A stretch of 43,856 nucleotides of DNA, from NCBI GenBank assembly GCA_018897475.1, contig JAHIKS010000093.1, positions 1-43,856 of the forward strand. Reading direction: 5' to 3'. The position numbers and the translations under genes were made by a program. Positions 11,242 through 43,856 of this stretch are shown in pieces; the stretch's first letter is position 1, and every line of letters begins with the position of its first letter. Source of the stretch: Candidatus Altiarchaeota archaeon. GTDB taxonomy: Archaea; Altiarchaeota; Altiarchaeia; IMC4; QMZM01. Under the pieces are notes generated by a model. That model saw nothing but the letters and a program-made list of their open reading frames with translations, did not search any database and was not told the DNA's origin.

Positions 11242-12021
11242 ATGAAGAATGGTGATTACACGCAAGAGGAAGATGTCATTATCACAAGAATGAGGTCAGA
11301 AGGGAATAAGAACCATGGGATCGCCCTAAGACTTGATAGAAGCCTGGATAGCATAAAGGGAAGGGCTCGATACCTGATAAAGAAGGGATTAATAAAATCA
11401 CGGGGTACAGCTAATGGTAGGTATCCGGAAGGTCGAAAATTGCGCAAATGGACAGATGAAGATATCAAGAAATTTAAGCAATTAAGAGGTTCTGGAAAAC
11501 CGTATGCAGAGATTGCTAAAGAACTTGGTAGAACGGTTGATGCCATACAGCAAACTGCTATTAGATTGATGAGGAAGGATGATACTCTATCCAGCCGAAA
11601 TACTCCAACGGATACAAAAATCTATAATCTTAACTCAGAGTTGGCCAAAATAGGCCTTATGTTGTGGTGGGCCGAAGGAACAAAGGGAGGACACAGTGTT
11701 CAGTTTGTTAATTCCTCTCCAGACATGATTAAAGTCTACATGCGTTTCTTGCGCGAGATTGGTGCAGATATCAGCAGATTGAGAGTAAGGATTAAGGTCA
11801 TGAACTCGTCGCAGGTTGAAGAATGTCAAGGGTACTGGTCAAAGGTAGCAAAAATACCAATAAATAACTTTACGAAACCAATAGTTCGAGGTAAAAAGAT
11901 AGATGATGCCTACAAAGAGCATAAGGGATGTCTCACCATAACATACTTCTCAAGCAATCTCAAGAGGCAGATGGAAGCGAAGATAGATGAGATTAAGGAG
12001 GAGATATTGAAACAAAGTTAG
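11242..12021 (+). CDS. Hypothetical protein: two Myb/SANT-like HTH repeats fused to a LAGLIDADG-like domain
   Basis: Two similar ~45-aa repeats: 'YTQEEDVIITRMRSEG.KNHGIALRLDRSLDSIKGRARYL' and 'WTDEDIKKFKQLRGSGKPYAEIAKELGRTVDAIQQTAIRL'. The C-terminal part, 'LAKIGLMLWWAEGTKGG.SVQFVNSSPDMIKVYMRFLREIG', resembles a single LAGLIDADG motif plus the following beta strands. Confidence 0.45.
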   Translation: MKNGDYTQEEDVIITRMRSEGNKNHGIALRLDRSLDSIKGRARYLIKKGLIKSRGTANGRYPEGRKLRKWTDEDIKKFKQLRGSGKPYAEIAKELGRTVDAIQQTAIRLMRKDDTLSSRNTPTDTKIYNLNSELAKIGLMLWWAEGTKGGHSVQFVNSSPDMIKVYMRFLREIGADISRLRVRIKVMNSSQVEECQGYWSKVAKIPINNFTKPIVRGKKIDDAYKEHKGCLTITYFSSNLKRQMEAKIDEIKEEILKQS

Positions 12022-22272: not shown

Positions 22273-22655
22273 TTCAGGTTCTCAACAAGAGCAGGGGTTT
22301 TGTCATAAGCGAATCCTGTGATGTAGCTGATTCTTTCTTCTCCAGGTTCAGGGGTCTGATGCTTTCAGGGCCGAAGGACTTGGTTCTTGTTTCCCCTAGA
22401 GAGGACATAAAGTCCTCGACGATTCACATGCTGTTTATGAGGTTTCCGATAGATGTGATTTGGGTGGATTCAGATATGGTTGTTATAGAAATTAAAAAAG
22501 GAATTAAACCCAACTCCCTTAAAATCTTCAAGCCAAAGAAGCCGGCTAAGTTTGTTGTAGAGCTGGGAATAGGAAAGTTAGGCACTACAGATGTTGGCGA
22601 TAGAATTGAGTTCTCACATCCCGACCCCGCCAAGCCGCTTCATCAGCCGCTTTAG
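22266..22655 (+). CDS. DUF192 (COG1430) family protein
   Basis: 129 aa. 'RFRGLM', 'MLFMRFPIDVIWVD' and 'VVELGIGK...GDRIEF' fit the DUF192 pattern. It contains an in-frame copy of the dispersed 12-nt motif (22577-22588). Its 3' end overlaps the srp54 3' end by 42 nt. Confidence 0.6.
   Translation: MVIQVLNKSRGFVISESCDVADSFFSRFRGLMLSGPKDLVLVSPREDIKSSTIHMLFMRFPIDVIWVDSDMVVIEIKKGIKPNSLKIFKPKKPAKFVVELGIGKLGTTDVGDRIEFSHPDPAKPLHQPL
22577..22588 (-). repeat. Intragenic copy of the dispersed motif (reads GTTAGGCACTAC on +)
   Basis: Exact 12/12. The coding frame is aag TTA GGC ACT ACa, giving K-L-G-T-T. With its flank (22572-22588) it is the exact reverse complement of 40749-40765 (17 nt). Confidence 0.9.
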
Positions 22656-28184: not shown

Positions 28185-28330
28185 ACTACTCCCACCAAAA
28201 ACCTACGGTTTTTGGAAGGAGCTTCCTGTTTCATTGACGAGACTTGCAGCAGAACCGAAGTCCTGAAGTAGAGGTTTCATCTCCGCAGGCGTTGGTTCGG
28301 GTCGCACCGACCCTACCTCTTTGAGAGCCT
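28150..28330 (-). ncRNA. Candidate omega-RNA (reRNA) scaffold of TnpB
   Basis: In characterised TnpB systems the guide RNA overlaps the tnpB 3' end and the right end of the element. Here that region carries three clean hairpins: GGGTCG-CAC-CGACCC (28299-28313), a 6-bp stem with a UUCG loop on the minus strand (28250-28265), and CCAAAAACC-TAC-GGTTTTTGG (28195-28215). Confidence 0.35.
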
Positions 28331-29393
28331 TATTCAATATGTTTATCGCAGCATTAGGGTCTCTGTCCATTACCAAGCCGCAATGCGGACACCTATGTTC
28401 TCTTACCCAAATTGGCTTGTAGACATATTTTCCACATTCTGGGTTGCTGCAGTTTTGTGTTGTGTTTTTTGGATCTACCTTCGCAAGCGTCCTACCAGCT
28501 CCCTCCGCCTTGTAGGACAGCATCTGAATGAAGGTTGACCATGAAGAGTCTGCTGTATTCTGGGCATTATAAGAGGATTCCATCATCTCCTTTACCGCCA
28601 GGTCCTCTACACCTATAATGTCGTAGTTATTTATGTAGTAGCGTGAAAGCTTGTGCAGGAAGTCCCTTCGCCCATCAGTTATTCTTTCATATACTCTCGC
28701 CGTCTTTATCCTCTGCTTCAGTCTGTTCTTTGAACCCTTCTCTTTCTTTGCCAGGTTTCTCTGCTCTCTGGCAAGTTTCTCTTCCAGTTTAAGAAGATTA
28801 TGAGGGTGTTCTATCCACTCCCCATTGCTGTCGGTCAGGTAGTTCTCTATGTTCAGGTCCAGTCCGATTGCTTTCCCTGTAGTGCCTAATTTTTCTGCTT
28901 TGGTTTCTACAGAAAAGATTGCGAACCACCTCCCTGATTGCTCTCTCTTGATGTGGACTTGCTTTATACTCCCCTTTATCTTCCTGTGCAGTTTTATCGG
29001 AATTGGTCCTATCTTAGACAAACGTAGTCTGTTGTCGATGATTGCGAAACCTGTCTGATTGTAGACAAAGGATTTCATCCGAGTGTATTTCTTGAACCTG
29101 AGTCTGCCGACCTTCCTTCCTTTTGCTTTCAATCCCCTGAGCCCCCGCAGGTTGGAATATAGTTGCCATAAAACATACTGCCTTGTTTTAGAGTGGCTGT
29201 TTTCCAACTCAGGCCACTGCCGGACAAGATAAGGTATCTGGGCCTGTAAATCATATTTTGGAGGAACTTTATCTGATTCCTTCCACTTTCTGAGGAAGTA
29301 GTTGTAGAGTTTCCTGCAACTATCAAGGACTTCCAGCATCCCCATCTCCTGGGCCTTGCTTGGATAGAGCCTAAACCTTAGATTTCTTTGCAT
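28203..29393 (-). CDS. tnpB: TnpB (IS200/IS605-family OrfB) RNA-guided nuclease-type transposon protein
   Basis: 396 aa. N-terminal 'LRFRLYPSKAQE'. RuvC-I 'AIGLDLN'. RuvC-II 'IIGVEDL'. Zinc finger 'CSNPECGKY...HRCPHCG'. RuvC-III 'DRDPNAAINI'. No tnpA (Y1 transposase) is adjacent. Confidence 0.9.
   Translation of the reverse strand: MQRNLRFRLYPSKAQEMGMLEVLDSCRKLYNYFLRKWKESDKVPPKYDLQAQIPYLVRQWPELENSHSKTRQYVLWQLYSNLRGLRGLKAKGRKVGRLRFKKYTRMKSFVYNQTGFAIIDNRLRLSKIGPIPIKLHRKIKGSIKQVHIKREQSGRWFAIFSVETKAEKLGTTGKAIGLDLNIENYLTDSNGEWIEHPHNLLKLEEKLAREQRNLAKKEKGSKNRLKQRIKTARVYERITDGRRDFLHKLSRYYINNYDIIGVEDLAVKEMMESSYNAQNTADSSWSTFIQMLSYKAEGAGRTLAKVDPKNTTQNCSNPECGKYVYKPIWVREHRCPHCGLVMDRDPNAAINILNKALKEVGSVRPEPTPAEMKPLLQDFGSAASLVNETGSSFQKP
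28879..28890 (+). repeat. Near copy (11/12, GTAGTGCCTAAT) of the dispersed motif inside tnpB, antisense
   Basis: On the coding (minus) strand it reads aaa TTA GGC ACT ACa, giving K-L-G-T-T. This is the same frame and codons as the two exact intragenic copies. Confidence 0.7.
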
Positions 29394-31221: not shown

Positions 31222-31280
31222 TCCCTCTTCTTTTTTTCTATTTTTATCCGTCTGAATCTAACTTAATAGTGGGTTCAAAC

Positions 31281-32744
31281 ATGCGCCTTGAGAGCATAGA
31301 TAGCACTAGAGACATTGAAATTGTAAGAGACCCAATGGCCAGGATTATTGGGCAGGGTGGTGCTATAGAGCGGGTCAAGGTTGCCATAAAACAGAGGAGA
31401 CATCTGCTTCTTGTTGGTCCCCCCGGAATCGGGAAGTCTATGGTTGCTCAGGCGATTGCCCTTTCACTTCCAGAGCCGGGGAAGGAGATTCGCGTTCTCC
31501 ATAACCCAGAGAACCCGGAGAGGCCGGTTCTTAAGGTTGTATCTCGGGAGGAGGTCGAAGAGAAAGAGGCGCCGCCGTCTGTTGATGACGGAGTCGTTAG
31601 CCCGCGGTCTGTTCCGTCCTTTGTTGCGGAGCGCCTTGGCTTCCGGTGCTTTGTTTGTGGGGCAATAAGCGGCGCACGGGAGCGGGCGTGTCCCTCCTGC
31701 GGGGCAAACAAATACAAGAAATTCGCATGGGACCAGCAGAGCTCGCCCCTAGGGGAGATAATAACTGAGGTCTTTGGGATTGGGGGGGAGGGCCCCGAAC
31801 TGGAGGTGAAGACAGTAACTACTGAGCCCTCTGGGGAGGAGCGTGTTGTGGTCTACCGCAGGATAGATGACGGGAGGATTGTGGTTCTGCAGAAGGGTGG
31901 TTTAGAGGAACCGGCTCAAGAAAAGGCCCCCCAGGCAATGAAGGTGTTAGTTCCACTTGGCAGGATCCCGTTCGTTCGCGCCACCGGCGCCTCAGAGACC
32001 GAGCTTTTGGGAGATGTAAGGCACGACCCGTATGGGGGCCACCCAGAGATTGGGGCTCCAGCATATCAGAGAGTTATTCCGGGTGCGATACATGATGCCC
32101 ATGAGGGCGTTCTCTTCATAGACGAGCTGCCCTCCATGGAACACCTACAAAGCTTCATCCTGACCGCGATGCAGGAAAAGAAGTTTCCAATTATTGGTAG
32201 AAACCCGCACTCCTCCGGGGCCTCAGTAAAGGTCGAGGACGTGCCCTGCGATTTTGTTTTTGTGGGTGCATGTAACACGCGGGAGCTTGCCGGGATGCTT
32301 CCGGCCCTGCGCTCCAGGATTGTTGGTTCGGGTTATGAGATTTTATTGGAAACAACAATGCCTGATTGTGAGGAGAACCAAATGGCGTTAATCAGGTTTA
32401 TTGCACAGGAAATTGAACTCGATGGTAAAATCCCCCACGCCAGTAGGGGGGCCGTTGAGGAGGCAATAAAGGTTGCTAGAAAGCGGGCACTAGAGATAGA
32501 CGGTGCGAGAAATTCCCTCACCCTTCGCCTTAGAGAGCTCGGGGGCCTGATACGGCTTGCGGGAGACATTGCCGTGTCTGAGGGCGCGGAATTTATAGAA
32601 GGAAAGCACGTTAAGAAGGGTATCAAGGAAACGCGGCCCATAGAACACCAGTTAAAGGACAAATACGGCTCTGTTTGGAAGGGGTTGGAGCGCGATAGTT
32701 ATATTGAGTCCACCCAAGACTCCCGGCTTGAGGGTTATGGGTGA
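31281..32744 (+). CDS. LonB-like AAA+ ATPase lacking the protease domain and the membrane insertion; Cys4 zinc-ribbon insert
   Basis: 'IIGQGGAIERVKVAIKQRRHLLLVGPPGIGKSM' (Walker A), 'GVLFIDELPSM' (Walker B) and 'LTAMQEKKFPIIGRNPHSSGASVKVEDVPCDFVFVGACN' align by eye with archaeal LonB. The insert between the Walker motifs has 'CFVCG...CPSCG' and no TM helices. The ORF ends where the LonB protease domain would begin. Confidence 0.75.
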   Translation: MRLESIDSTRDIEIVRDPMARIIGQGGAIERVKVAIKQRRHLLLVGPPGIGKSMVAQAIALSLPEPGKEIRVLHNPENPERPVLKVVSREEVEEKEAPPSVDDGVVSPRSVPSFVAERLGFRCFVCGAISGARERACPSCGANKYKKFAWDQQSSPLGEIITEVFGIGGEGPELEVKTVTTEPSGEERVVVYRRIDDGRIVVLQKGGLEEPAQEKAPQAMKVLVPLGRIPFVRATGASETELLGDVRHDPYGGHPEIGAPAYQRVIPGAIHDAHEGVLFIDELPSMEHLQSFILTAMQEKKFPIIGRNPHSSGASVKVEDVPCDFVFVGACNTRELAGMLPALRSRIVGSGYEILLETTMPDCEENQMALIRFIAQEIELDGKIPHASRGAVEEAIKVARKRALEIDGARNSLTLRLRELGGLIRLAGDIAVSEGAEFIEGKHVKKGIKETRPIEHQLKDKYGSVWKGLERDSYIESTQDSRLEGYG

Positions 32745-32790
32745 GGGGGGTCATTTCCGGTATTCTACTATGTCTTTGTTATGAGTAAGG

Positions 32791-32935
32791 GTTAGGCACT
32801 ACAATGCATCAGTAAATTGTTGGACATTATGAGAACTAAGAGTAGAAGGAGTTAGGCACTACGCAGAAAGAGAAAATTATATAAAAACATAATAGATGGA
32901 GTGTTGTATGGAGGTATTAAATGGTTAGGCACTAC
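32791..32935 (-). repeat. Cluster of three copies of the dispersed 12-nt motif (GTTAGGCACTAC on +)
   Basis: Exact copies at 32791-32802, 32851-32862 and 32924-32935, in the AT-rich gap between the convergent lonB-like and ssb-like genes. Confidence 0.9.
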
Positions 32936-32949
32936 ATACACTAACTCAA

Positions 32950-33282
32950 TTATTCCTCAACTACTATTTCCTCATCATCAGCCACGGCTTCCTCGCTACC
33001 AGCCACTATCAATTTACCGAATTTTCCTGTGCTTACCTGCATCTCACCACGATATTCTTTAGCCCATCCGTTCTCTATCACTATCTTATCGTTTGCCTTT
33101 ACCTGGTCTGCCTGCTCGTTCCAGAGGGTTAGGTTTATCTCGCCAGTTTCATCCTTTGCCTTGGCGTTTGCTACTCGGCCGGTGCCTCTAAAATTGGTAA
33201 ACTCCCTGGGTTCCTCAACCTCAACTACCTCCACTTCAAGTACATCAACTGACTTATTTGGCTGAACGTCTTTTATCTGCAT
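32950..33282 (-). CDS. Single-OB-fold ssDNA-binding (SSB/RPA-like) protein with acidic C-terminal tail
   Basis: 110 aa. 'VANAKAKDETGEINLTLWNEQAD' and 'IENGWAKEYRGEMQVSTGKFG' fit an OB-fold nucleic-acid-binding domain. Acidic tail 'EEAVADDEEIVVEE'. Confidence 0.6.
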   Translation of the reverse strand: MQIKDVQPNKSVDVLEVEVVEVEEPREFTNFRGTGRVANAKAKDETGEINLTLWNEQADQVKANDKIVIENGWAKEYRGEMQVSTGKFGKLIVAGSEEAVADDEEIVVEE

Positions 33283-33344: not shown

Positions 33345-34121
33345 TTAAGTCCCCAATTGAATGGCGCTATTAATCTCCTTTAGAGTAGCAATGGTGGACA
33401 TGGCAGCAAGATAGCTTGTTTTTGGGTTGTTGGGAGATGGAAGGTTCTCCATTTTAATATTAAATTCCCCAAACATCCCAACAACACGAATCTCATGCAC
33501 ATTTCTATTTACATCGGGATCTGCAATTATTCTTAGTTTCGTTTTATCAAATCCCATACCTACCAAAGAGAGGGTGGCGGCAACATTGACGTTTTTTGGG
33601 AATTTTTTGATTCCTTCTCTTGCAGTGCCTTCATAGACTATGGTTTCTTTATCTGTCGTAGTGCCTAACTCTGCCGGGGGCTTCCTTGTTGTCAATTCAA
33701 CCGAGTCGATTCCTTTGGTCTTGGCCGCCTTTATTCCATCCAAACCCGCAATCGCTCCGGACGGAACGTAAATCCTGCGGCCGGTTTTATTAATGAGTTG
33801 CGTTAATTCGTTAAAGAGGGCCTCATCAGCGAGGGCACCAACACTCATTATAAGGATGTCCTTTCCAGAGTCCAGGACCTTAACCCCATAGTCCCTTACT
33901 GCGTCCTGCGACGCGGCCTCCACCACCAAATCTGTGTCTTGAAGCAGGCCTTCAATGGAATCTGCGACGTCTGGTTTCCTACGTAGTTGGGTGGCCAGTT
34001 CTCTGGCCCGTTCAATGTCCTGGTCAAAGACAGCAACCAGGCTGCAATCAACCTCCTCCCTATCAATTGCATCGGCCAGAATTCTGCCGATGTTCCCGCA
34101 CCCCAGGAGACCAATTCTCAT
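33345..34121 (-). CDS. nadX: L-aspartate dehydrogenase
   Basis: ORF track 33345..34169; the likely ATG at 34119-34121 gives 'MRIGLLGCGNIGR' (Rossmann GxGxxG). The C-terminal 'ENLPSPNNPKTSYLAAMSTIATLK' is typical of the family. It contains an antisense copy of the 12-nt motif. Confidence 0.8.
   Translation of the reverse strand: MRIGLLGCGNIGRILADAIDREEVDCSLVAVFDQDIERARELATQLRRKPDVADSIEGLLQDTDLVVEAASQDAVRDYGVKVLDSGKDILIMSVGALADEALFNELTQLINKTGRRIYVPSGAIAGLDGIKAAKTKGIDSVELTTRKPPAELGTTTDKETIVYEGTAREGIKKFPKNVNVAATLSLVGMGFDKTKLRIIADPDVNRNVHEIRVVGMFGEFNIKMENLPSPNNPKTSYLAAMSTIATLKEINSAIQLGT
33658..33669 (+). repeat. Intragenic copy of the dispersed motif (GTAGTGCCTAAC on +, antisense to nadX)
   Basis: Exact 12/12. 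The coding strand reads gag TTA GGC ACT ACg, giving E-L-G-T-T. Extended to 33658-33672 (GTAGTGCCTAACTCT) it is identical to 37072-37086. Confidence 0.9.
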
Positions 34122-34153: not shown

Positions 34154-34969
34154 TCATCTTCTTACCCATAATTGCACCCTGATTAGAATATACAAGAGGA
34201 AAAAGATAAAAGAGAGCGCCAGGACACGTAGTTTGGACACCGGCCGCGCACGAGTCAAACCACCAACATCAAAAAACTTCCCCTTTTCAATATCCTCGAC
34301 ATACCTGAGAATTCCCTTCTTATGTCCTGCACCAACAACAGCCAGGATATTCTTCTCTGGGTTATTCGCCTGGAGATTATGGAGTGAGAGGGCCATATAT
34401 CTATCTCTTTCATCAACCAGCGCGCTGTAAAGGCAGGGCAGCCGTTTTCTAACAACACCCATAATCTTGTCAATATTCTCCTCCTCAAGGATGCTGCTCA
34501 AATCATTCCCGAATAGGTCACCAAAAACCAGGGCATCCTCCTTACCGAGACGCAACATCCTTAGAATCTCCCTAAATGGAATATTGACAAGCCGGCTGAT
34601 GGTAACCTCGATGTCCCTATCAATCAGTGCTATCCCTGCACCGGTTTCCTTGGAGAACTGAGTGGCTGCGAACATGTCTGAGCCCGGCGGAAGCCCATAC
34701 CTCTTTCCAAGGTTCTGCTGAATCAAAGCGAGAATTCCCCCCAGGAATACAAGAAACGACCCCCCCCTCACCGCCTCGGAGAGGGTGCTACCTGCGCTTT
34801 TCTGTGCCCCGCCCTGGTAAAAATCGGCACCCTGCGATTCCATTACACGGAATCTCTTCTCACACAGCTCAAGAGCAACGATATCCGGCCTCTCATCAAA
34901 GACGGCCTCCCTAACGCCCTCAACACTCCTCTCCAGAATGTGCCCCGTCCCGACGATTTTTATATTCAT
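34154..34969 (-). CDS. TraB/PrgY-family protein
   Basis: 'IKIVGTGHILERSVEGV', 'PDIVALELCEKR', 'IALIDRDIEVT' and 'LAVVGAGHKKGI', plus a C-terminal TM helix, match the TraB family pattern. Confidence 0.7.
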   Translation of the reverse strand: MNIKIVGTGHILERSVEGVREAVFDERPDIVALELCEKRFRVMESQGADFYQGGAQKSAGSTLSEAVRGGSFLVFLGGILALIQQNLGKRYGLPPGSDMFAATQFSKETGAGIALIDRDIEVTISRLVNIPFREILRMLRLGKEDALVFGDLFGNDLSSILEEENIDKIMGVVRKRLPCLYSALVDERDRYMALSLHNLQANNPEKNILAVVGAGHKKGILRYVEDIEKGKFFDVGGLTRARPVSKLRVLALSFIFFLLYILIRVQLWVRR

Positions 34970-37043: not shown

Positions 37044-37044
37044 T

Positions 37045-37182
37045 GTAGTGCCTAACCCTTGGTGCTGTTTTGTAGTGCCTAACTCTATGGGGGCGTAGTG
37101 CCTAACTTTCTAGAACCGCAGTGCCTAACTCTATTGTGCTGTGGCGTAGTGCCTAACTTACCCCCCAAACGTAGTGCCTAAC
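37045..37182 (+). repeat. Array of six spaced copies of the 12-nt motif GTAGTGCCTAAC
   Basis: Copies at 37045-37056, 37072-37083, 37095-37106, 37118-37129 (GCAGTGCCTAAC), 37146-37157 and 37171-37182. Spacers are 15, 11, 11, 16 and 13 nt. The array occupies the complete cutA/tsaC convergent gap. Confidence 0.95.
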
Positions 37183-39492: not shown

Positions 39493-40752
39493 ATGTTTAT
39501 CGGTTTGGATGATACGGACTCCCTGAAGGGGGGATGCACTACATACTTAGCAGCGCTGCTATGCAGGGAGCTGGGCACTACAAAAAACCCGAAACTAATC
39601 CGGCTCAATCCGAACATCCCTTACAAGACAAGGGGCAACGGCGCAGTCGCAATTGAGGTGGATGGAAACCCCGCTAGAATAAAGGAAGTGGCCCTGAATC
39701 TGGTCAAGGAACACGCCCACACCAAGGACAAGAGAACAAACCCCGGCGTGGCATTCATTGATAATCTAAATTCAAAAAATAAAAAGAGCCTCAATGAATT
39801 CTACCAGAGAGCGGTCTCGGAACTCGTCACAATCGAGGAAGCCGAGGAGACCGCAGCCAAAACCAATGCAGAAATTCACAAATTCAACAACGGTAGAGGC
39901 ATCATCGGCGCGCTGGCAGCAATTGGTGCGGGTCTCGATGACAGGACCTATGAGCTAATTGCCTACAGGAAGAAGGAGAACTGTGGAAAGCCCAAAGGGA
40001 TAGATGAGGATTCTGTATTTGCGATGCACGAACGGCTCCACCCTCAGGTATTCAATTCCATAGACCCAGAGACAGGACAGATTCTCATAACCCCGCACGG
40101 CTACGACCCGGTCTTCTGCGGAATCAGGGGCGAGTCTCCGGAGGCAGTTCTGGAGGCATGGAAGTCCATAAAACCGCTGGAAGAGATAGAATTCATCCAA
40201 ATATTCGAGACAAACCAGGGGACCGACGCCCACCTCAGGGAGAATAAAATATCCGAGCTAAAGCCCTATGACTGTGCCATCCTGGAAGGCGCCGTTGCCA
40301 GCAACTCAAGAACAATCGAGGGCGGCCACGTTTTCTTTTCAATTGCTGACGGCACAGGAGAGATTGACTGCGCGGCCTACGAGCCAACAGGGAGATTCAG
40401 GGAGATAACAAGGAAACTATTAACTGGGGACAGAATTCGCGCCCACGGAGGAATTGGAAGATATATCAATACCCTAAACCTTGAAAAGATTGAAATTTTA
40501 GAATTGATTAAGGCACATAAAAAAGAATCTCCTGCCTGCTGCGGCCGGACTATGACATCAGCAGGAAAAGACAAGGGCTTCAAGTGCAGGAAGTGCGGCA
40601 AGAGAAAGGATTCGAACTCTGCAGTAATCCAGGAAATTCCCAGAGGGCTGAAAGACGGATTTTATGAGGCGCCCCCAAGGGCGATGAGGCACCTGAGCAA
40701 GCCGATAATAAGGGCGCAGCAGCGAATTTCAACAGACAAAACCGATATGTAG
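39493..40752 (+). CDS. tiaS: tRNA(Ile2) 2-agmatinylcytidine synthetase TiaS
   Basis: 'MFIGLDDTDSLKGGCTTYLAA' and 'LIRLNPNIPYKTRGNGAVAI' form the TiaS N-terminal hallmark. C-terminal OB region and zinc ribbon 'CCGRTMTSAGKDKGFKCRKCG'. Confidence 0.85.
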   Translation: MFIGLDDTDSLKGGCTTYLAALLCRELGTTKNPKLIRLNPNIPYKTRGNGAVAIEVDGNPARIKEVALNLVKEHAHTKDKRTNPGVAFIDNLNSKNKKSLNEFYQRAVSELVTIEEAEETAAKTNAEIHKFNNGRGIIGALAAIGAGLDDRTYELIAYRKKENCGKPKGIDEDSVFAMHERLHPQVFNSIDPETGQILITPHGYDPVFCGIRGESPEAVLEAWKSIKPLEEIEFIQIFETNQGTDAHLRENKISELKPYDCAILEGAVASNSRTIEGGHVFFSIADGTGEIDCAAYEPTGRFREITRKLLTGDRIRAHGGIGRYINTLNLEKIEILELIKAHKKESPACCGRTMTSAGKDKGFKCRKCGKRKDSNSAVIQEIPRGLKDGFYEAPPRAMRHLSKPIIRAQQRISTDKTDM

Positions 40753-40760
40753 TGCCTAAC
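40749..40760 (+). repeat. Solitary copy of the 12-nt motif overlapping the tiaS stop codon
   Basis: GTAGTGCCTAAC exact. Its internal TAG (40750-40752) is the tiaS stop codon. Confidence 0.9.
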
Positions 40761-40812
40761 TTTCCCCCAACCTATTTAATCCTCCATTCCTAATTCTATT
40801 ACACTCCCAGAG

Positions 40813-43208: not shown

Positions 43209-43727
43209 ATGTATCATATAGCTGCTTACTCCCCGAACGATTCTGAAATCCACAAAGCAACGGACATATCAGAGGTCAAGAAATTTCTCGGCAAACACCC
43301 GGTTACATGGCTTCACATTTCTCATCCAAAAGAAAAGGACATCGAGTCCCTTGCTGAGATATTTGGTTTTCACCACCTTCCACTGGAAGACATCATAAAA
43401 TTCAAGCAGAGGCCAAAATTTGAGGACTATGATGACCACTTCTTTCTGACAATAAACATAATCGAATACTCCAAGGCGGTTGAGGCCCATCAGCTTGCGA
43501 TGTTCGTCGGCGACGACTATGTTGTTACAATCTGCGAAAAGGAAAACAACTGCATAGACGAAGTCCTGAAAAGGATAGAATCAAAGAACCCGAGAATTCT
43601 TGCCAACAAGACCGGATTCCTCTGCTACCTCATTCTCGATACGGTAACAAACAACTATTTCCCGACCCTTGACGCGGTCGAGGGGGAAATCGAGAGCATT
43701 GAGAAGGAGATAATAACCCAAGTTTGA
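43209..43727 (+). pseudogene. corA: CorA-type Mg2+/Co2+ transporter, N-terminal cytoplasmic domain only (truncated)
   Basis: 'WLHISHPKEKDIESLAEIFGFHHLPLEDI' and 'FEDYDDHFFLTINII' fit the CorA N-domain. The ORF stops at 172 aa, before the long stalk helix, the two TM helices and the GMN motif. The stop lies within the first copy of the repeat-rich tract (43723-). Confidence 0.6.
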
Positions 43728-43856
43728 CAGTTTGACGGCGTTTCCACTATTTTGACAGGAATTACTATTTGACAGATACGCAAATCAACTGGTTTTTGTC
43801 ATGAAATCGCCTGGTTTTTGACAAAAATCAGCCTGTTTATGGGGTTGAAGTTGGAG
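43723..43856 (+). repeat. Repeat-rich tract: TTTGACAG/TTGACA copies followed by ~21-22-bp degenerate direct repeats; runs off the window
   Basis: TTTGACAG at 43723, 43751 and 43768, and TTTGACGG at 43731. AAATCAACTGGTTTTTGTCA (43783-), AAATCGCCTGGTTTTTGACA (43804-) and AAATCAGCCTGTTT (43826-) are tandem units. Confidence 0.7.

Follow-up and report, generated by a model that had tools for sequence, protein, structure and literature searches.

Archaeal repressors such as MDR1, LrpA, Phr and members of the TrmB family use operators that overlap the TATA box or the transcription start. Small proteins that combine centromere binding with global repression are known in addition from omega of pSM19035, with its 7-bp heptads, and from ParG, with parH. 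Clustered regularly interspaced short palindromic repeats (CRISPR), another kind of array, consist of repeats of ~23-50 nt with regular spacers of ~26-72 nt. Here we analyse a 12-nt motif repeated three times in the gap between a gene for a LonB-like AAA ATPase and a gene for an SSB/RPA-like OB-fold protein, on contig JAHIKS010000093.1 of a Candidatus Altiarchaeota archaeon; the whole stretch of 43,856 nt that was analysed is called the window below.

With middling confidence, and from sequence comparison, we propose that this focal cluster could represent three head-to-tail sites in duplex DNA for a small sequence-specific protein of the YYYL family, described below. The word is conserved, its orientation is indifferent to transcription and it takes part in a fixed promoter architecture, and these properties together point to a protein recognising duplex DNA.

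Recurrence and maintenance of the 12-nt word

The three exact copies of the focal array (Table 1) are separated by spacers of 48 nt (33% GC) and 61 nt (28% GC) in a window of 48% GC, and the gap that holds them, between the LonB-like gene on the + strand and the SSB-like gene on the - strand, is convergent. An earlier note, made from the letters of this DNA, had placed copies at 32791, 32851 and 32924 with AT-rich spacers of these lengths, the nearest one 14 nt past the SSB-like stop in a convergent gap, and exact matching and the coordinates bear this out. Copy 1 starts 2 nt past the TAA ending a 15-codon frame that overlaps the LonB-like stop. In the window as a whole the motif occurs exactly 11 times, against 0 in 100 dinucleotide-preserving shuffles. 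Nine of the 11 exact copies are intergenic and the remaining two are coding (DUF192 and aspartate dehydrogenase), while three further copies, at 12017, 28879 and 37118, carry one mismatch; the first 22 kb of the window contain no exact copy.

A sister array lies in the CutA/Sua5 convergent gap, with exact copies at 37045, 37072, 37095, 37146 and 37171 and the one-mismatch copy at 37118. A 17-mer of the focal gap, AAGGGTTAGGCACTACA (32787-32803), is the exact reverse complement of 37044-37060, from which the earlier note had concluded that the two clusters are related by copying. That both belong to one family stands. The match is no evidence that the clusters were copied from each other, because copies share a flank consensus, purine-rich from -5 to -1 and with a purine at +1 (RRARA-motif-R), which is enough to explain it. 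Among the 55 copy pairs in the window, extended matches comprise one of 18 nt, two of 17 nt and two of 16 nt, and one of them pairs a coding-sequence copy with the copy at the TiaS gene.

To follow the word beyond the window, one genome per GTDB species was scanned for two direct copies 8-38 nt apart, and metagenome contigs were scanned for the same pattern. The reference scan yielded 42 loci of 31-63% GC, labelled Altiarchaeota, Micrarchaeota, Iainarchaeota, Woesearchaeota or "uncultured archaeon", together with a few doubtful bins; the metagenome scan added 117 further loci (individual loci are designated below by L numbers), and viral contigs gave 0 matches to the direct-pair pattern. Occurrence of the motif is patchy in DPANN and Altiarchaeota, and single metagenome-assembled genomes (MAGs) carry arrays on many contigs. 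Exact copies number 169 and one-mismatch copies 15 in the window and the first 42 loci, position 1 being the least constrained. Common to the loci are the 12-mer and ~5 flanking purines only, the spacers differing from genome to genome.

All but one of the 167 multi-copy clusters have co-oriented copies arranged head to tail, a count obtained with a search pattern that itself demanded direct pairs; both window arrays are uniform in orientation though they were not ascertained through that scan. In the loci examined, the spacers are irregular, the shortest measuring 4 nt and the longest more than 100 nt, and the centre-to-centre spacing displays loose peaks at 22-25, 31-35, 39-41 and 44-45 nt with no clean helical periodicity. 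A full-text literature search for the 12-mer, in both orientations and as DNA or RNA, returned no paper, and literature on Altiarchaeota repeats and on DPANN small transcription factors contained nothing relevant. Judged from its distribution in sequence data, the 12-mer is real, non-random, letter-perfect over several archaeal phyla and not strain-specific.

Perfect tandem arrays also occur, made of an 18-nt unit repeated four times (L122, L133) or of a 24-nt unit beside an assembly gap (L028 1323-1382; L022 1363-1398). Long satellites that include the motif (L137 310-2060, L086 1-440), with a 29-nt unit present in more than 36 exact copies and with a 15-nt unit, may be unrelated to the archaeal arrays.

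Syntenic loci, recognised by all-against-all comparison of open reading frames (ORFs), give a view of how the focal array is maintained. Six of the seven orthologous LonB-like loci, whose proteins are 56-88% identical to that of the window, carry an array downstream in the same orientation, with one to three exact copies each, some plus a one-mismatch copy, at a locus GC of 40-50%; the seventh, L020 (56% GC), has no array directly after the LonB-like gene. The first copy is positionally orthologous in L031, L036, L039 and L154, where it lies ~45-65 nt past the LonB-like stop and follows a conserved 20-nt element. The spacers of these orthologous gaps are unalignable and their copy numbers vary. 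Units of the CutA/Sua5 array have likewise been gained, lost and decayed among the window, L031 and L009, and the comparison of orthologous gaps suggested by the earlier note has thus revealed copy-number variation at both places. Comparison with the near-identical strains L043-L048 was uninformative, both gaps being 100% identical. The persistence of exact 12-mers within diverged non-coding DNA implies either selection on the sites or their continual regeneration. Moreover, in L039 and L049 the gene downstream of the LonB-like gene is co-directional, so that the array is not bound to convergence as such.

The YYYL domain as candidate binder

The commonest neighbours of the arrays are proteins that are alike only in an N-terminal segment of ~40 aa. 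The consensus of this YYYL domain is MAFxRxKxIKGxxYYYLVESxRxGGKVxQxVLxYLG, followed by a basic tail. A hidden Markov model (HMM) of the domain matched 38 ORFs in the 159 motif-selected loci. Most of them are tiny basic proteins of 45-76 aa, and the domain also forms the N-terminus of a glycyl-tRNA synthetase (GlyRS) of ~550 aa, of Fic-domain proteins, of a C2H2 zinc-finger protein and of a DDE_Tnp_1 transposase. It corresponds to no Pfam family and has no PDB relative by sequence, and a profile search retrieved 1,038 clusters, all annotated hypothetical. AlphaFold2 predicts for residues 1-36 a three-stranded antiparallel beta-sheet, with a predicted local distance difference test score (pLDDT) above 90, and for the remainder a disordered basic tail.

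About 30 YYYL ORFs have the motif within 45 nt of their start, and the promoter architecture is the same in ~30 loci: motif, TATA-like spacer, motif, 2-17 nt and ATG, with two or three copies in all. The proximal copy falls downstream of the TATA box and ahead of a start that is probably leaderless, as counted from the usual TATA-to-start distance; archaeal repressors at a site between TATA box and start block the recruitment of RNA polymerase. The YYYL genes of these ~30 loci look autoregulated, as far as promoter layout can tell. Counted from the other side, 21 of the 30 ORFs with a forward copy no more than 45 nt upstream belong to the YYYL family, and the remaining nine include several short ORFs that are spurious; since arrays make up ~2% of the sequence by our estimate, less than one such adjacency would be expected by chance. 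The motif stands reversed in the same promoter position in L075, L113, L165, L098 and L065, and its occurrence in both orientations in YYYL promoters is what one would expect if DNA, not an mRNA leader, is recognised. Variants of the putative operator occupy the same position in L013 (GTGGTGCCTAAC), L166 (GTAATGCCTAAC) and L172 (GTAATGCCCATT).

GlyRS with an N-terminal YYYL domain is encoded in L058, L073, L079, L082, L084, L092, L106, L108, L126 and L158. Its promoter reads motif, AAAACA TTTAAATA TCTAAAT, motif, TT and ATG, a layout kept over contigs that range from 26 to 42% GC, with proteins 30-60% identical. Two or three copies bracket the TFB-recognition element (BRE)/TATA of the YYYL-GlyRS gene itself, and this arrangement suggests that YYYL-GlyRS may repress its own transcription. 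In the GlyRS-type contigs the motif is found only at the GlyRS promoter within the 10-14 kb visible, whereas Altiarchaeota-like, Iainarchaeota and Micrarchaeota loci have it in dispersed arrays, and this difference across lineages suggests that the operator has multiplied in some of them. A recognition based on the tRNA-Gly anticodon or on a T-box-like leader was considered and dropped, the same architecture being present in both orientations before YYYL genes that do not encode GlyRS.

The order Trm56, TFE, array with YYYL gene, PRC-barrel recurs in L015, L024, L027, L066, L077, L115 and L157. These loci have 42-59% GC and come from three MAGs (Micrarchaeota, Iainarchaeota and an unclassified archaeon) and four unlabelled metagenome contigs; with this recurrent order, the YYYL gene looks vertically inherited and not mobile. 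A MinD/ParA-like gene is near the arrays only sometimes.

An insertion sequence (IS) present in L154 (5292-6685) and L141 (18-1439) encodes a DDE_Tnp_1 transposase that begins with the YYYL domain. The IS ends in inverted repeats, TTATACACTACA / TGTAGTGTATAA, which equal the motif TTAGGCACTACA except in two positions, with TA in place of GG. The association of a YYYL-headed transposase with motif-like terminal repeats suggests that YYYL reads sites of such a type.

Proposed explanation and its rivals

In the mechanism that we propose, the core site would be TTAGGCACTAC with purine-rich flanks, and the YYYL protein would bind each 12-mer on duplex DNA as a monomer-sized unit, because spacers can be as short as 4 nt. 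This protein would repress its own promoter and, encoded elsewhere in the genome, would occupy the sites at 32791-32935. The operator would have been multiplied into dispersed arrays in Altiarchaeota-like and some DPANN genomes, and these would persist chiefly where promoters are undisturbed, namely in convergent gaps and close to 3' ends. When protein sits on them, the arrays may mark or insulate the boundaries of transcription units; alternatively, they may buffer the concentration of free protein. The focal array itself could be a boundary or roadblock, a reservoir for the autoregulated protein or a tolerated by-product of site multiplication. Its specific role in this convergent gap is the weakest step of the explanation: the lack of polarity speaks against a classical polar roadblock, and the conservation at an orthologous position against pure junk.

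Several observations weigh against the proposal. An HMM scan found no YYYL gene in the 43.9-kb window, and the sole YYYL member in an Altiarchaeota-labelled MAG (L032) has no exact motif upstream. The picture is mixed among four members chosen irrespective of the motif: one has a one-mismatch copy 7 nt before its start, another has diverged variants behind its TATA box and two have none. Only a YYYL subfamily would consequently be tied to the exact 12-mer, and for this organism we infer that link. As the focal gap has no adjacent gene start, the operator logic is not directly transferable to it. The ratio of exact to mismatched copies is unusually high for a transcription-factor site and fits a copying process as well. 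Finally, a Foldseek search with the YYYL model gave nothing significant (best E = 0.73), the integrase arm-binding domains 3jtz and 3rmp being among the matches only at E >1.

The position and orientation of the arrays were counted with a crude ORF caller over ~157 loci and the window. Of 134 convergent gaps, 51 hold an array, compared with 53 of the 412 tandem and 14 of the 143 divergent ones, which amounts to a ~3-fold preference for convergent gaps; in tandem gaps the array lies nearer the upstream stop in 31 cases vs 14. An enrichment at gene 3' ends and in convergent gaps, as the earlier note had anticipated, is therefore present in the fetched loci.

The rival that survives best is a selfish or mobile short repeat similar to repetitive extragenic palindromic (REP) sequences and bacterial interspersed mosaic elements (BIMEs), to Neisseria intergenic mosaic elements (NIMEs) or to miniature inverted-repeat transposable elements (MITEs), which would be copied, for instance, by the YYYL-headed transposase and have no host function. 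We hold this to be possible and rather unlikely. Arrays would build up in convergent gaps as insertions there are harmless, in line with the ~3-fold enrichment, and the great excess of exact over mismatched copies, the gain and loss of units between close relatives, some perfect tandem expansions (L122, L133, L028), the patchy distribution in DPANN and Altiarchaeota and the IS of L154 and L141, with its YYYL domain and motif-like terminal repeat, all agree with it. However, no palindrome or hairpin, inverted-repeat pairing or target-site duplication accompanies the motif, and the arrays run head to tail. Conservation is limited to 12-13 nt, with flanks that differ among genomes, and the direct-pair scan found no copies on viral contigs. 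Exactness at orthologous sites whose proteins are 56-88% identical, together with the fixed promoter architecture, implies selection. A selfish origin would be compatible with copies that are also protein-binding sites.

A protein-bound roadblock terminator or boundary, comparable to the TTF-I/Sal-box or Reb1 arrays of eukaryotes, would be a functional version of the explanation that we prefer, and we regard it as doubtful. Arrays enriched in convergent gaps and at 3' ends and kept at orthologous gene ends are what it calls for, and both window gaps are free of long T-tracts when their sequence is read, a single weak terminator-like match overlapping the CutA array. On the other hand, known roadblocks are polar and the arrays here have no polarity with respect to transcription; they are also present in divergent gaps (14 clusters) and in promoters.

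The orientation counts weigh against the idea of an RNA element, GUAGUGCCUAAC, located in the 3' untranslated region (UTR) of the SSB-like, CutA and TiaS transcripts and acting in termination, in stability or through an RNA-binding protein. The earlier note had described this sense-in-3'-UTR geometry, and copies do lie close to stops (14 nt for SSB-like, 2 nt for CutA, overlapping for TiaS), the arrays are biased to 3' ends, and a T or pyrimidine run usually follows the motif on the GTAGTG strand, in a loosely terminator-like manner. Yet orientation is random: the GTTAGG strand is sense in 27 tandem-gap arrays and the GTAGTG strand in 26, the corresponding figures being 16 and 15 for tandem-gap arrays nearest a 3' end, and 33 and 26 for convergent gaps relative to the nearer gene. 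When folded as RNA, neither strand of the focal gap did better than shuffles (z = +1.25 and -0.05). Rfam searches at gathering and E-value thresholds found no match to the motif, only a tRNA-Arg at 27.8 kb, and a sigma-70 and terminator scan of 32745-32949 found nothing. With random orientation and no RNA structure signal, the 3'-UTR reading is unsupported and a strand-specific RNA role of the motif is unlikely. Furthermore, in the six motif-bearing orthologous gaps the motif has the sense of the LonB-like gene and not that of the SSB-like gene, the SSB-like gene of L039 is co-directional and downstream, and the copies in YYYL promoters flank the TATA box, where at least the distal one would be untranscribed. 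Altogether we consider the RNA element improbable. A guide or target of C/D-box small RNAs was likewise rejected, the flank profile having no C/D box consensus beside the motif.

Least probable is a DNA-uptake or self-recognition tag of the kind of the Neisseria DNA uptake sequence (DUS) or the Haemophilus uptake signal sequence (USS), over-represented via biased uptake or recombination: 12 nt, far more exact than near matches, both strands, occasional coding copies in permissive frames and an aspartate dehydrogenase gene with the motif at two positions in different lineages would suit it, whereas tight head-to-tail clusters in place of even dispersal, a first 22 kb devoid of the motif and some genomes with the motif only at the YYYL promoter within the visible 10-14 kb do not, and an identical tag over several phyla is, to our knowledge, unlike the known dialects of uptake sequences.

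Should YYYL proteins indeed read the 12-mer, a wider scenario can be sketched, which we advance tentatively and rate as unlikely in its entirety. Altiarchaeota and DPANN would have domesticated YYYL, which would also be the DNA-reading head of an IS4/IS1634-like transposase, to serve as an autoregulated and site-specific protein of genome architecture. The 12-bp site of this protein would stand in hundreds of head-to-tail arrays marking transcription-unit ends, and the GlyRS fusion would be a transcriptional autoregulator in one lineage.

Almost nothing is known about gene regulation and chromosome organisation in the largely uncultivated Altiarchaeota and DPANN. A 12-bp word that is unchanged over phyla at 31-63% GC and is paired with a Pfam-less candidate family provides a testable recognition pair. 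If true, the proposal would introduce a new DNA-binding fold family and a probable archaeal domestication of the DNA-binding head of a transposase, and a 6-kDa protein would become a handle on transcription-unit delimitation in compact genomes. Moreover, with operators around the TATA box of its gene, the fused GlyRS would count among the rare aminoacyl-tRNA synthetases that autoregulate their transcription.

Other features of the window and comparison with known systems

The window is archaeal in content, with genes for TiaS, GatD, a DnaG-type primase and NrdD. Its proteins recur exactly in three NCBI MAG assemblies, GCA_022013775.1, GCA_018898515.1 and GCA_018896055.1, and its closest labelled relatives by synteny are Altiarchaeota MAGs. 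The LonB-like protein matches the ATPase part of LonB (TIGR00764 at 357 bits, below cutoff), and no protease domain was detected in it by the family scan.

Table 1. Positions of the motif copies and other features of the window
Feature	Position	Strand	Remark
LonB-like AAA ATPase gene	31269..32744	+	left flank of the gap
Second conserved non-coding element GGGGGTCATTTCCGGTATTC	32746..32765	+	just past the LonB-like stop, upstream of the array
Motif copy 1, GTTAGGCACTAC	32791..32802	+	exact match
Motif copy 2, GTTAGGCACTAC	32851..32862	+	exact match
TATA-box-like AT-rich run AAATTATATAAA	32875..32886	not assigned	within the 61-nt spacer, read from sequence
Motif copy 3, GTTAGGCACTAC	32924..32935	+	exact match; 14 nt from the SSB-like stop
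SSB/RPA-like OB-fold gene	32950..33282	-	right flank of the gap
Copy within DUF192 coding sequence	22577..22588	+	exact match
Copy within aspartate dehydrogenase coding sequence	33658..33669	-	encodes LGTT
Sister array, CutA/Sua5 convergent gap	37045..37182	-	five exact copies and one with one mismatch
Single copy overlapping the TiaS stop codon	40749..40760	-	exact match

Within the focal gap, the TATA-like run of the second spacer is not conserved in that of L031 and has no gene start after it. The second conserved element, GGGGGTCATTTCCGGTATTC, is conserved at the nucleotide level downstream of the orthologous LonB-like gene in L020, L031, L036, L039, L049 and L154. A copy of it with three mismatches lies at 34745-34764 (-) inside the TraB coding sequence, and the TraB orthologues of L021 and L155 also hold sequence related to it. 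Its reading as a micro-ORF was discarded, as neither frame nor peptide is conserved among the orthologues, whose sequences were read for this purpose.

From the copy at the TiaS stop it is 12 nt to a downstream TATTTAAT box and 52 nt to the nrdD start, and this region (40749-40812) has the sole window copy in a plausible promoter-upstream position. In aspartate dehydrogenase genes the exact 12-mer takes two positions and frames according to lineage, encoding LGTT in the window and in L031 (2348) and VRHY in L022 (756), and its presence inside these genes is far above chance. A 277-aa protein of L142 (857-1690) contains three in-frame motif copies (LGTT) in an acidic linker, and related cases are L061, L153 and L162; arrays can thus occupy genuine coding sequence, as the L142 protein demonstrates.

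The TnpB gene at 28203-29393 (-), which encodes an RNA-guided endonuclease of the IS200/IS605 family (NCBIfam guided_TnpB, 264 bits), contains the one-mismatch copy at 28879-28890, and no TnpA was identified with it. At the right end of the window (~43727-43856), every public contig with the CorA-like gene, the last gene of the window, stops within ~130 nt past it (L043, L175-L177), which suggests that a repeat or mobile element just past the window may break assemblies there. The switch of motif orientation at ~33 kb had raised the idea of a replication origin or terminus, which was abandoned, GC skew being uninformative.

The element would belong to a known kind, that of protein-binding repeat families, and would operate in the manner of an autoregulated repressor provided with additional dispersed sites; both its word and its candidate binder are undescribed. 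Some familiar repeats were set aside directly. A CRISPR array does not match a 12-nt repeat with irregular spacers. A MITE or the solo terminal repeat of an IS would not account for direct arrays without inverted partners, the only likeness being that to the IS repeat of L154. Origin recognition boxes (ORB/mini-ORB) and iterons, which occupy one or a few loci per replicon, with inverted sites on either side of an AT-rich unwinding element and orc1/cdc6 next to them, were rejected in view of several clusters within 18 kb, of arrays on many contigs per MAG and of focal copies that are co-oriented; no Orc1/Cdc6 was present among the window proteins scanned, and DnaG and SSB-like genes are nearby.

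The arm sites of lambda-type integrases are likewise asymmetric sequences of ~10-12 bp in direct arrays, and the domain that reads them is N-terminal, small and built of a three-stranded beta-sheet. The recombination enzyme that carries the domain here is a DDE transposase. In contrast to the integrases, structural matches to arm-binding domains are insignificant, and the stand-alone YYYL proteins have no recombinase partner.

REP/BIME sequences with their RAYT transposases and NIME/dRS3 elements share with the present family short extragenic repeats at gene 3' ends and in convergent gaps, with variable segments between units, and a possible evolutionary link to the DNA-binding function of a transposase. 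REP/BIME units are imperfect palindromes that make a hairpin beside a GTAG/CTAC tetranucleotide, and they flank the gene of a Y1 (IS200-like TnpA) RAYT. The motif contains GTAG and differs from REP/BIME in being non-palindromic, with variable flanks and no hairpin beside it. Its repeats are direct instead of alternating, and the word is the same across phyla and not species-specific. No Y1 transposase was seen and only TnpB was identified in the window, though not all window ORFs were scanned for Y1.

The omega and ParG systems offer another parallel, as they also combine a tiny autoregulated DNA-binding protein, here a candidate, with arrays of a short asymmetric repeat in variable number. 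They differ in that omega and ParG form ribbon-helix-helix dimers and work at few loci, on plasmids and beside parA, whereas the arrays described here are chromosomal, occupy many loci and give no indication of a role in partition.

As to archaeal repressor operators, the candidate protein is distinct from their binders in being a ~40-aa beta-sheet domain and neither a helix-turn-helix nor a ribbon-helix-helix, and the site is asymmetric and repeated head to tail, with most window copies far from promoters. Sites that flank the TATA box at a conserved distance occur in the motif family, in ~30 loci, and not at the focal cluster. In those loci, as in archaeal repressor operators, the motif brackets the TATA box of the gene for the putative binder itself, and the space from TATA to start is taken up by the proximal copy.

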